A DNA stretch of 64,000 nucleotides from the NCBI RefSeq assembly GCF_988243305.1, contig NZ_OZ547136.1, one strand, 5' to 3'. Numbering within the stretch: the stretch's first letter is position 1; every line of letters starts with the position of its first letter. Shown piece after piece: positions 1 through 6,073 of this stretch. A model generated the notes under the pieces. The model was not told the DNA's origin and ran no database searches. It saw nothing but the letters and a program-made list of their open reading frames with translations. The translations under genes were made by a program, and so were the position numbers.

Positions 1-362
1 TCGCGCTGGGCAATACCATTGATTTGACTGTAATTGCCCAGACAGGTTTGCTGGGGATCCTGTTGGGTGTGGCAGTAATTATCGTGACCGGTATTCCGTT
101 GATTATCGCCGATAAATTGATTGGCGGTGGCGATGGCACTGCCGGAATTGCCGCTTCCAGTTCCGCAGGGGCCGCGGTAGCGACACCTGTGCTGATTGCA
201 GAAATGGTGCCTGCGTTTAAACCGATGGCTCCGGCAGCAACTTCGCTGGTCGCGACGGCGGTCATTGTGACTTCGATTCTGGTGCCAATTCTTACCTCTA
301 TCTGGTCACGTAAAGTCAAAGCCAGAGCAGCGAAAATCGAAATTTTAGGTACGGTGAAATAA
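1..362 (+). CDS. kdgT: 2-keto-3-deoxygluconate permease, C-terminal part (5' end outside window)
   Basis: Hydrophobic Gly/Ala-rich C-terminus, open frame from window edge to stop at 362; position upstream of yiiM as in K-12. Confidence 0.6.
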
Positions 363-510
363 ACCTGCTTCCTTAATCCCCACAGCCGGATGAACTAACG
401 TTCGTCCGGTTTGCTATTGAGTTCCTGCCTGGATACTTACCGCGAAAACAGCACGCCTGACATAAAATAAATATGGTCTAATGGGGAAATTTCTCGTGGA
501 GAGGGAACAG

Positions 511-1185
511 ATGCGATATCCGGTTGATGTATACACAGGCAAGATTCAGGCTTATCCCGAAGGCAAACCCAGCGCAATTGCTAAAATCCAGGTTGATGGT
601 GAGTTGATGCTGACGGAGCTGGGGCTGGAAGGTGACGAGCAGGCGGAGAAAAAGGTTCACGGCGGGCCAGACAGAGCGCTGTGTCATTATCCTCGTGAGC
701 ACTATCTCTACTGGGCGCGGGAATTTCCGGAACAGGCGGAGTTGTTTGTTGCGCCTGCGTTTGGCGAAAATCTCTCAACCGACGGTCTGACGGAAAGTAA
801 TGTTTATATTGGCGATATTTTCCGCTGGGGAGAGGCATTAATTCAGGTCAGCCAGCCACGCTCACCTTGCTATAAACTCAATTACCATTTTGATATCAGC
901 GATATAGCGCAGTTGATGCAAAACACGGGTAAAGTGGGGTGGTTGTATAGCGTGATTGCGCCAGGGTTGGTATCTGCTGATGCGCCGCTGGAGTTGGTTT
1001 CCCGTGTCAGTGATGTGACCGTGCAGGAGGCTGCCGCCATCGCATGGCATATGCCGTTTGATGACGAGCAGTATCACCGTTTACTCTCCGCCGCCGGGTT
1101 ATCGAAAAGCTGGACGCGGACGATGCAAAAGCGCCGACTGAGCGGCAAGATCGAAGATTTTTCCCGCCGGTTGTGGGGAAAATAA
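511..1185 (+). CDS. yiiM: MOSC-domain protein YiiM
   Basis: ATG at 511 (MRYPVDVYTGKIQ...), 224 aa; ORF-track frame 481..1185 trimmed to the recognised start. Confidence 0.85.
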   Translation: MRYPVDVYTGKIQAYPEGKPSAIAKIQVDGELMLTELGLEGDEQAEKKVHGGPDRALCHYPREHYLYWAREFPEQAELFVAPAFGENLSTDGLTESNVYIGDIFRWGEALIQVSQPRSPCYKLNYHFDISDIAQLMQNTGKVGWLYSVIAPGLVSADAPLELVSRVSDVTVQEAAAIAWHMPFDDEQYHRLLSAAGLSKSWTRTMQKRRLSGKIEDFSRRLWGK

Positions 1186-1193
1186 TCCCCGGA

Positions 1194-1254
<61 letters not shown>

Positions 1255-1255
1255 G

Positions 1256-2496
<1,241 letters not shown>

Positions 2497-3020
2497 TGAA
2501 CTGCACCCCAAATGTTGGACATAATCTGACATCTGAAGGTGCAGTTTATGAAACATTCATTTGAAGTAAAACTTGCCGCTGTAAATCATTACCTGGCCGG
2601 TCATGCTGGCATCATTTCTACGGCAAAACTCTTTCAACTTTCTCACACCAGCCTCTCACACTGGATTAATCTTTTTCTTCTTCACGGTCCTCGGGCACTG
2701 GATTGCAGACACAGGCGTAGCTATTCTCCTGAAGATAAACTTTGCGTGGTTCTTTATGCTCTCGGGCATTCTGAGTCTCTACCCCGGGTAGCTGCCCGGT
2801 TTAACATTCCCAGCCACAACACGGTTAAAAACTGGATAAAAGGCTACCGCAAATCTGGTGATGAGGCCTTTATCAGGCGCAGGAAGGAGAAAAGCATGAC
2901 CCGTTCTGATGATACCCATGAAAACGAGGCAAACATGACGCCGGAAGAGATGAAGAATGAGCTGCGTTATCTTCGCGCAGAAAATGCATATCTGAAAGCC
3001 ATGCAGGAGCATCTCCTGGA

Positions 3021-3026
3021 AAAAAA

Positions 3027-3027
<1 letters not shown>
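3021..3027 (+). promoter_or_regulatory. Programmed -1 ribosomal frameshift heptamer A AAA AAG
   Basis: In orfA zero frame; the -1 frame stays open from 3027 into orfB with no stop. Confidence 0.6.
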
Positions 3028-3928
<901 letters not shown>

Positions 3929-3931
3929 ATC

Positions 3932-3995
3932 AGCGTCGCATCAGGCATCCTGCTCAAATGCCGGATGCGGCGTAAACGCCTTATCCTGCCTACAA
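3932..3995. repeat. REP/BIME palindromic units between IS right end and cpxA
   Basis: gcgtcgcatcaggc and gccggatgcggcgtaaacgccttatcc consensus-like REP motifs. Confidence 0.6.
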
Positions 3996-4004
3996 ATGCG
4001 GAGT

Positions 4005-5378
4005 TTAACTCCGCTTATACAGCGGCAACCAAATCACCAGCCGTAAACCGCCCAGCGGGCTGTCTTCCGCTTTAACCCAGCCACGATGCTGCTGAATGGC
4101 GGTTTCAACAATCGCCAGCCCCAAACCTGTACCGCCAGATTCACGATCGCGTGCTTCATCGGTCCGATAGAACGGACGGAAAATCTGTTCGCGATCTTCC
4201 GGGCTAACGCCAGGACCATCGTCGTCCACCGTAATGGTGATACCGTCTTTATCTACCGCAAAGCCCACTTCAATCTTCGTATGGGAATAACGCAGAGCAT
4301 TACGAACAATGTTTTCCAGCGCACTTTCCAGGGCGTTCGGATTGCCGTACAGCGGCCACGGCCCAGGCGGGAAGTTAACCATCAACGACTTGCCCATCTG
4401 CTCGGCTTCGAACGCCGCGTTATCCAGCACTTCGCCCCACAACTGGTTAGCTTTCAATGTCTCGCTTACCAGCGCGTTTTTCTGCTGATTACGTGACATC
4501 ACCAACAGATCGTTAATCATGCTGTCCAGACGTTGCGCTTCGGTTTCAATACGCTCCAGTTCCTTGCTTTCACCGCTACGACGGCGCAGTAACGCCGTAC
4601 CCAGTTGCAGACGCGTCAGCGGGGTGCGCAGCTCGTGAGAGATATCAGAAAGTAGACGCTGCTGAGAGGTCATCATGCGCTCCAGCGCGGTGACCATCTG
4701 GTTAAAACTGGCACCTGCGGCAAGGAATTCCTGTGGCCCCGCTTCCAGTTCCGGGTGCTGGCGTAAGTTTCCCTGGGCAACTTCATCGGCAGCGTTTTTC
4801 AGCTTACGCGCCGGTTTTGCCAGACTCCAGGCCAACCACAACAGCAACGGCGTACTGACCAGCATGGTGACAATCAGCAGTAATAGCGGGCGGTCAAACA
4901 GTAAGTTAATGAAATCGGATTGAGAACTGCTGGCCGGACGAATCAGATAAAGTTGGTAATTATCTTCGCCATCACGCACGGAGAACGGACCGACCAGTTC
5001 CACGCGCCCATACTTTTTCTTCTGCGGATGATCGGCGTTATCGGCCTGACCAATAAAGTTACGAATGATCTGCATTTCGCTGCGTTCAGCGCCGATCACG
5101 CGGCCTTCGGTGGTCACCAATAACAAACGCTGTCCTGGCGGTGCCCACTTATCAATCGCCCGGAACAGACGCCGCCACCACATTAAATCATTGGGCGGAT
5201 CGTTCGCCAGCTCCGCTTCGACATGCTGCTCAATCATCAGACCCTGACGCTGTTCGCTATCCAGAAGCTCGGTCATCTGGCGTGAATCGAGCTTGGGTAA
5301 CATCAAAACCAACATCAACACCAGCGCCAGCGTCAGCCAGAAGATGGCGAAGATGCGCGCGGTTAAGCTGCCTATCAT
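4005..5378 (-). CDS. cpxA: Envelope-stress sensor histidine kinase CpxA
   Basis: 457 aa; 2 TM, HAMP, HisKA (HELRTPLTRL), HATPase; overlaps cpxR stop. Confidence 0.95.
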   Translation of the reverse strand: MIGSLTARIFAIFWLTLALVLMLVLMLPKLDSRQMTELLDSEQRQGLMIEQHVEAELANDPPNDLMWWRRLFRAIDKWAPPGQRLLLVTTEGRVIGAERSEMQIIRNFIGQADNADHPQKKKYGRVELVGPFSVRDGEDNYQLYLIRPASSSQSDFINLLFDRPLLLLIVTMLVSTPLLLWLAWSLAKPARKLKNAADEVAQGNLRQHPELEAGPQEFLAAGASFNQMVTALERMMTSQQRLLSDISHELRTPLTRLQLGTALLRRRSGESKELERIETEAQRLDSMINDLLVMSRNQQKNALVSETLKANQLWGEVLDNAAFEAEQMGKSLMVNFPPGPWPLYGNPNALESALENIVRNALRYSHTKIEVGFAVDKDGITITVDDDGPGVSPEDREQIFRPFYRTDEARDRESGGTGLGLAIVETAIQQHRGWVKAEDSPLGGLRLVIWLPLYKRS

Positions 5379-6073
5379 GAAGCAGAAACCATCAGATAGC
5401 CGCGACCACGCAAGGTTTTAAACCACGGGTGACCATCTTTACGATCCGGCAGTTTACGACGCAGGTTGGAAATGTGCATATCGATAGCGCGGTCGAAAGG
5501 CGTCAGACGTTTGCCCAGCACTTCCTGGCTTAAATGTTCACGGGAAACCACCTGACCCAGATGCTGTGCCAGCAAATAGAGCAGGGTAAACTCAGTACCG
5601 GTTAACTCCAGCGTTTGCCCGTCGAAGCTGGCTTCCTGACGGCCTGGATTCAGCACTAAGGCATCAACTTCCAGTGTCGGTGAACCGTTGTCGTTGTTTT
5701 GCTGTTGCTCGCTCCAGTGCGAACGGCGCAGGATCGCGCGAATACGTGCCACCAGCTCACGATCATTAAACGGTTTCGGGAGATAGTCATCTGCGCCCAG
5801 CTCAAGGCCGAGAACGCGATCAAGTTCACTGCCGCGCGCCGTCAACATAATGACAGGCGTCTGGTGTGTCTGGCGAAGTGCTTTTAATGTGTCGATACCA
5901 TTTTTCTTCGGCATCATTACATCAAGCAAAAGTAAATCAATGCTGTCGTCCAGAAGATCAAGCGCCTGTTCCCCATCGTGGGCAACAATCACATTGAAGC
6001 CTTCCATCTCGAGCAGCTCCTTTAATAGGGAAGTCAGCTCTCGGTCATCATCAACTAACAGGATTTTATTCAT
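5375..6073 (-). CDS. cpxR: Response regulator CpxR (OmpR family)
   Basis: 232 aa, MNKILLVDDD receiver + winged-helix C-terminus. Confidence 0.95.
   Translation of the reverse strand: MNKILLVDDDRELTSLLKELLEMEGFNVIVAHDGEQALDLLDDSIDLLLLDVMMPKKNGIDTLKALRQTHQTPVIMLTARGSELDRVLGLELGADDYLPKPFNDRELVARIRAILRRSHWSEQQQNNDNGSPTLEVDALVLNPGRQEASFDGQTLELTGTEFTLLYLLAQHLGQVVSREHLSQEVLGKRLTPFDRAIDMHISNLRRKLPDRKDGHPWFKTLRGRGYLMVSAS

Follow-up and report, generated by a model that had tools for sequence, protein, structure and literature searches.

The -1 frameshift on the A AAA AAG heptamer of IS150 (insJ/insK in E. coli K-12) has been established experimentally (Vogele et al. 1991, cited in PMC4066793). For bacterial -1 signals, a published rule places a stimulatory GGAG 6 to 17 nucleotides before the slippery motif, and a mean hairpin stability of 0.45 kcal/mol per nucleotide is given for the IS3 family (both as quoted in PMC4066793). 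IS1397 inserts in REP/PU palindromes, according to PMC1525189, in which the earlier literature on this element is cited (Bachellier et al. 1997; Clement et al. 1999; Wilde et al. 2001, 2003).

The DNA analysed here is a stretch of 64,000 nucleotides (contig NZ_OZ547136.1 of NCBI RefSeq assembly GCF_988243305.1; hereafter 'the window') from the kdgT-yiiM-cpxA-cpxR region of E. coli, with an insertion sequence located in the BIME between yiiM and cpxA. The original prediction was that of an IS3-family element in which a frameshift heptamer supports an intact OrfAB transposase, and the element was identified as IS1397 (Table 1): OrfAB scored 388 bits on the NCBIfam model transpos_IS3 (cut-off 160), and the element matched RefSeq copies named 'IS3-like element IS1397 family transposase' over the full length with 99.5-99.9% nucleotide identity, the assignment being made indirectly, through the NCBI naming of the matching copies. 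Its 1,432 bp equal the length of the other full-length IS1397 copies compared and fall in the size range of the IS3 family (approximately 1.2 to 1.55 kb), and its TG...CA ends follow the family pattern; an OrfAB identity of 41% to IS150 and a duplicated helix-turn-helix (HTH) in OrfA place it in the IS150 subgroup. In nucleotide identity, insertion in a REP/PU loop and 3-bp duplication there was no substantive difference from IS1397 as published; a known E. coli insertion sequence is present here in an ordinary copy that appears intact, and nothing about the copy itself is new. As a complete explanation of the locus, an intact IS1397 in a REP/PU loop, producing OrfAB through a -1 slip on A AAA AAG with the help of flanking stimulators, is considered very probable.

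Table 1. Features of the IS1397 copy and of its target site (positions in the window)
Feature	Coordinates	Strand	Basis
Left arm of split REP/PU palindrome, GCCTGATAAGACGCT	2479..2493		Joins right arm in empty sites
Left 3-bp target-site duplication, ATC	2494..2496		Single ATC in empty sites
Complete IS1397 (IS3 family, IS150 subgroup), 1432 bp	2497..3928	+	Full-length megablast matches
Left terminal inverted repeat (IRL), 5'-TG, TGAACTGCACCCCAAATGTTGGACA	2497..2521	+	Inverted repeat; same in all compared copies
orfA, 173 aa	2548..3069	+	Translation; ATG 2548 to TGA 3067-3069
SD-like AGGAG, candidate upstream stimulator	3005..3009	+	11 nt before heptamer; published rule; same in all copies examined
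A AAA AAG slippery heptamer, programmed -1 frameshift site	3021..3027	+	In orfA phase; relatives; RefSeq notes
orfB part of OrfAB, -1 frame from G3027	3027..3896	+	Translation; HTH_21 and rve catalytic core
Predicted 38-nt hairpin, candidate downstream stimulator	3031..3068	+	RNAfold -12.4 kcal/mol, C-G closed
Catalytic D295 (WVTDITEF)	3429..3431	+	Invariant column; aligns to region of first catalytic D of retroviral integrase
Catalytic D355 (LHSDQGWHY)	3609..3611	+	Invariant column; aligns to integrase NTDNG motif
Catalytic E391 (MENFFGHLK), 35 residues after D355	3717..3719	+	Invariant column
K398, 7 residues past E391	3738..3740	+	Invariant column
Right terminal inverted repeat (IRR), ends CA-3'	3904..3928	+	Inverted repeat; same in all compared copies
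Right 3-bp target-site duplication, ATC	3929..3931		Single ATC in empty sites
Right arm of split REP/PU palindrome, AGCGTCGCATCAGGC	3932..3946		Joins left arm in empty sites

The reading frames of the element follow the two-ORF layout of the IS3 family, with phases 0 and -1 partly overlapping and a slippery motif within the overlap. The ATG of orfA is preceded by GAAGGTG, and at the slip site the orfA codons read ...CTG GA[A AAA AAG] CGC..., which is the canonical X XXY YYZ phase. In the -1 frame, the last upstream stop was found at 2958-2960, and from 2961 onwards no stop precedes the TAA at 3894-3896; as orfA ends at 3069, the heptamer lies inside an orfA/orfB overlap of 109 nucleotides. The heptamer had been placed correctly, and the claim that the -1 frame stays open from it into orfB stands. 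Joining 2548-3027 to 3027-3896 gives an OrfAB of 449 amino acids with the junction ...LLEKK-APGAGEK.... Under the proposed mechanism, normal translation from the ATG would give OrfA, a DNA-binding and regulatory protein, while a fraction of the ribosomes would slip one base back on the heptamer, the two Lys-tRNAs re-pairing from AAA-AAG to AAA-AAA, so that the next codon read would be the GCG at 3027-3029 and reading would continue to 3896. The product would be a transposase in which the HTH and zipper region of OrfA is joined to a DD(35)E catalytic core. From the arrangement of the frames and from the comparisons given below, we infer that frameshifting in IS1397 probably takes place at this heptamer.

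RefSeq coding sequences for IS1397 likewise consist of two joined pieces labelled 'programmed frameshift', in which the automatic annotation (PGAP) has placed the junction one base past the heptamer. For this reason all database IS1397 OrfAB proteins read ...LLEKK-P-PGAG. The practical point is that the RefSeq automatic junction gives P at residue 161, where slippage on the heptamer predicts A; the OrfAB of the window agrees with its database counterpart (NCBI protein P0001) at every other residue.

The heptamer by itself is not a rare sequence. On both strands of the window AAAAAAG occurred 35 times, relative to 13.8 times in shuffled sequences, which would be in line with a chance run of A's in lysine-rich coding sequence, OrfA and OrfB being made only as separate proteins. 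The number of in-phase positions in the overlap is however small (approximately 36), and an in-phase copy there was expected 0.0098 times by chance, from which it follows that the heptamer is not a chance feature. The orfB frame also speaks against separate synthesis of OrfB, as its early part lacks any start codon preceded by a ribosome-binding site, and the first start listed is a GTG at 3174, 71 codons in. Conservation was examined both within IS1397 and among more distant elements. An 80-nucleotide IS1397 frameshift cassette was found at 5,209 places in 1,719 E. coli genomes, and the heptamer and AGGAG were identical in eight out of eight cassette copies aligned (window copy included). A scan of IMG/VR gave 79 relative loci, which were 41-58% identical in the best-matching segment, except for one partial, near-identical copy. 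Parts corresponding to both OrfA and OrfB were present in 64 of these, with orfB in the -1 frame in 62 (46 distinct sequences), and the overlap of each of the 62 contained A AAA AAN in phase, in most cases as A AAA AAG. By these comparative data a chance heptamer with separately made proteins is effectively refuted. A further set of relatives (L010-L014, L083 and L093), mostly on metagenome or read-assembly contigs, had single uninterrupted ORFs of OrfAB length, which represent either fusions that occur naturally or errors of assembly at the run of A's and are uninformative on frameshifting.

The same A-run could in principle give rise to OrfAB at the level of transcription. With the preceding base the run comprises seven A's (3020-3026), and one A added by RNA polymerase would, judging from the sequence, lead to the same LLEKK-APGAG fusion as a -1 slip of the ribosome; certain IS elements do make use of transcriptional realignment (Sharma et al. 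2011, cited in PMC4066793). Most relatives, however, keep just six A's followed by G, strictly in X XXY YYZ phase, and since a mechanism at the polymerase level would not require this phase, its conservation speaks against polymerase slippage. For slippage to be efficient, E. coli RNA polymerase requires a run of approximately nine bases or more, which also counts against a run of seven. With IS150 using ribosomal frameshifting on the same heptamer (cited in PMC4066793), transcriptional slippage as the main source of OrfAB is regarded as highly improbable.

Marginally less probable still is a productive slip at another A-run, located at 3042-3049 (G AAA AAA C), which would give the junction ...EKKRQELEKK-TKVIR. 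This run reads AAA AAA in orfA phase (3043-3048), within the overlap and with the -1 frame open, and in some IMG/VR relatives a second in-phase heptamer is likewise found further downstream. With a G before the run, the P-site tRNA would nevertheless have to pair again on GAA, mismatched at the first position, so that the site departs from the canonical X XXY YYZ motif; the run forms part of the loop of the predicted hairpin and is followed by no structure at a suitable distance, and both candidate stimulators belong to the heptamer at 3021.

These likely stimulators of slippage on A AAA AAG are the AGGAG 11 nucleotides upstream, within the published distance range, and the 38-nucleotide hairpin, which starts 4 nucleotides after the motif and is closed by a C-G pair, both in agreement with the published empirical rules (PMC4066793). 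The stability of the hairpin was not significantly above that of shuffled sequence (z -1.19, -0.72 and -0.86), so its support comes from these rules, and at 0.33 kcal/mol per nucleotide it is below the quoted family mean. In a widespread sister lineage (ST131, BH100N), which has the same heptamer and AGGAG as the window and also carries T3015, an A at 3061 turns the U3038.G3061 wobble into a U-A pair; this variant is compatible with the hairpin and proves nothing. As an alternative fold, CTCCTGG (3013-3019) could pair with either CAGGAG copy, leaving the heptamer in a loop; no function is attached to this pairing. Compared with dnaX and IS911-type signals, IS1397 has the same heptamer, a GGAG-type sequence at 11 nucleotides upstream and a hairpin at 4 nucleotides downstream, although its stimulators are predicted ones, its hairpin is weaker than is typical for the IS3 family and its 3-nucleotide spacer is at the short end.

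IS150 is the known system to which the IS1397 transposase was aligned end to end, with 41% identity over 453 aligned positions (E = 6e-122). The two elements share domain order, the heptamer (located in the K-12 copy of IS150), TG...CA ends and the DDE + K motif. They differ in that IS150 is not REP-specific, in that the stem downstream of the heptamer is far more significant in IS150 (z -3.2) than in IS1397 (z -0.9), and in the position of the slip site itself. In IS150 the heptamer falls within a YLKK peptide, as it does in all of the 44 relatives examined (IS150 included), in which it is inside a conserved ...ENAYLKK; IS1397 has ...ENAYLKA (CTG AAA GCC) at this position, and its own heptamer encodes part of ...HLLEKK, 7 codons (21 nucleotides) downstream (2991-3027). 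This shift agrees with a 6-residue gap in the IS150 alignment, the OrfAB linker of IS1397 being 6 residues longer. A GGAG is located 11 nucleotides upstream of the IS1397 site and, in many relatives, of the old site. One possible, and at present tentative, reading of these observations is that the slip site of IS1397 is not positionally homologous to that of its subgroup, the motif having been lost at YLKK and moved one zipper heptad downstream together with a GGAG and a new hairpin; we consider this somewhat doubtful.

The domain content of the predicted proteins is that of an IS3-family transposase. Pfam matches in OrfA were HTH_28 (two stretches), HTH_23 and HTH_Tnp_1, and its two HTH regions are followed by leucines at heptad spacing (L142, L149 and L156), from which a zipper is predicted on the translation; OrfAB matched HTH_28, HTH_21, rve, rve_2 and rve_3, and its family profile matched the HTH protein 2jn6. 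Inactivating substitutions in the DDE triad would have spoken against an intact transposase, and the triad was therefore inspected in 29 aligned IS3-family proteins of 29-51% identity, including IS150 and IS3 InsF. All three catalytic residues, and the lysine following them, were present in OrfAB and invariant in 29 out of 29 sequences, with the DD(35)E spacing of the family and K at +7, and the search for triad damage was accordingly negative. A profile of this alignment reached a retroviral integrase weakly, with both D motifs aligned, while a PDB search with the single OrfB sequence gave no match. A word-indexed protein search returned only near-identical IS1397 variants; IS1397 copies are more than 98% identical to each other, with the next relatives at 55% or less and the next cluster representative at 43%.

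At the ends of the element, IRL and IRR are complementary at 21 of 25 positions (TGAACTG...CAGTTCA), and both are the same in every other copy compared. The duplication was assessed against two independent empty sites, from K-12 and from strain STEC1588, which has IS621 only at this locus. Both read GGCCTGATAAGACGCT-ATC-AGCGTCGCATCAGGC, with the inner part GACGCT-ATC-AGCGTC, and thus contain a single ATC in the loop of the palindrome, relative to one ATC on each side of the element in the window. The duplication is for this reason a real one, of a length within the 3-5 bp of the IS3 family, and the insertion occurred in the PU loop; the intact repeats and the 3-bp duplication that the original prediction had described are consequently both borne out. 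The window copy and nine other IS1397 copies were all found between two PU arms, with duplications of 3 to 4 bp.

In different strains, IS1397 has entered the yiiM-cpxA BIME independently on at least four occasions, one of them being the insertion in the window. In BH100N the element is at a position identical to that in the window and differs from it at 27 nucleotides; in ST2747 it is shifted by 1 bp, with the duplication TAT; and in strain 042 it lies in the second PU of the BIME, with the duplication AAAC. A more distant relative (L009; GCA_023823935.1, CP085717.1, element at approximately 346-1786), 43% identical and with an almost identical IRL (TGAACTGCACCCCAATTGTTAGACA), is also found in a palindrome loop, GCACTCGGAC-GTT|IS|GTT-CCGAGTGC, so that palindrome-loop targeting seems to reach distant relatives.

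By megablast, IS1397 matches were obtained in 3,496 of 5,426 complete E. coli genomes, with full-length matches in 1,707. Some part of the element is thus present in approximately 3,500 genomes, and the frameshift cassette or the element in full length in only approximately 1,700, leaving roughly 1,800 with partial remnants only. Relative to the two nearest copies (GCA_053165265.1), the window copy has one synonymous base, T3857, and relative to the copies of strain MEI003 it has three synonymous bases. T3857 also makes perfect a 13-bp inverted repeat with a 3-nucleotide loop (ACTCAGTCCGGTA gaa TACCGGACTGAGT, 3851-3879), located in the 3'-terminal part of orfB, a short distance inward of IRR; among ten other copies it is shared only with that of ST2747, the remaining nine having C, which leaves a mismatch.

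It had been proposed that the copy is probably transposition-competent, and from its sequence this is plausible. A structurally intact copy could nevertheless be non-proficient, either because N105D or K56R impairs end binding or multimerisation or because expression is too low. OrfA of the window has R56 and D105, where the most abundant variants have K56 and N105; D105 is rare (a minor haplotype), and N105 is present without exception in the ten OrfAB variants of highest abundance that were compared. A strict promoter scan upstream of orfA found no promoter, and the sole promoter-like match there lies inside IRL (TGAACT, 17 nucleotides, CATAAT) and is weak, agreeing at 8 of 12 positions. IS3-family transposition proceeds through a figure-eight and circle intermediate; a junction promoter formed by circularisation was considered and rejected, as IRR joined to IRL gave no sigma-70 match better than the one within IRL. 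Against a defect of this kind, the OrfAB variant of the window also occupies at least five further PU loops, in two other genomes, every one of these copies having a separate 3- to 4-bp duplication and DNA one to three synonymous substitutions away. This shows that the lineage with D105 and R56 has multiplied and strengthens the inference of competence. The catalytic half of the protein is identical to the consensus, and the inverted repeats do not depart from those of any other copy. A lack of proficiency is on balance unlikely, and the copy is plausibly able to transpose.

Several other features of the window lie close to the element or were considered in connection with it. IS621, the other insertion sequence of E. 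coli that targets REP (IS110 family, with a bridge-RNA-guided recombinase), is present as a complete copy (1,279 bp, 1200-2478, minus strand, transposase CDS 1305-2285) 18 bp from the IRL of IS1397. It is inserted at GTAG|GCCTGAT, the foot of the REP palindrome that holds IS1397, and is 100% identical to the copy that STEC1588 carries at this site. The non-coding left end of IS621 (approximately 2286-2478), where the bridge RNA is expected, is untouched by IS1397. The two elements target the same REP palindrome, but IS621 has an unrelated DEDD/serine recombinase, lacks inverted repeats and a frameshift, and inserts at the palindrome foot, in contrast to the loop insertion of IS1397. In the yiiM-cpxA spacer IS621 alone occurs in many E. 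coli genomes and IS1397 alone in a few, and the two together were found in none of the 5,426 complete E. coli genomes (window positions 1-6000, match coverage of at least 80%). Antisense ORFs within IS1397 (72-105 amino acids) were rejected as genes, with zero Pfam matches, and no Rfam family was matched in or near the element. The only two matches in the window at the Rfam gathering score were a ClpQY (hslVU) promoter element (54292-54349, minus strand) and an L31 ribosomal-protein leader (58961-59013, plus strand), which are expected chromosomal features unrelated to IS1397.

The finding is that of a known element using a known mechanism, and as such an annotation-level result, its main value being the correct annotation of a locus beside cpxA that holds an intact and, judging from its features, probably mobile IS1397. 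Four IS1397 insertions and one of IS621 in a single REP cluster illustrate the strength of REP palindromes as landing pads, a role already established in the literature. An IS1397 copy near cpxA could yield more REP-targeted insertions or recombine with other copies. If the slip site of IS1397 has indeed moved relative to that of its subgroup, and if this has not yet been described, it would be a natural case in which a recoding signal had moved as one unit; such a move would change the share of the zipper that is common to OrfA and OrfAB, and would be a property of IS1397 generally and not of the copy in the window.
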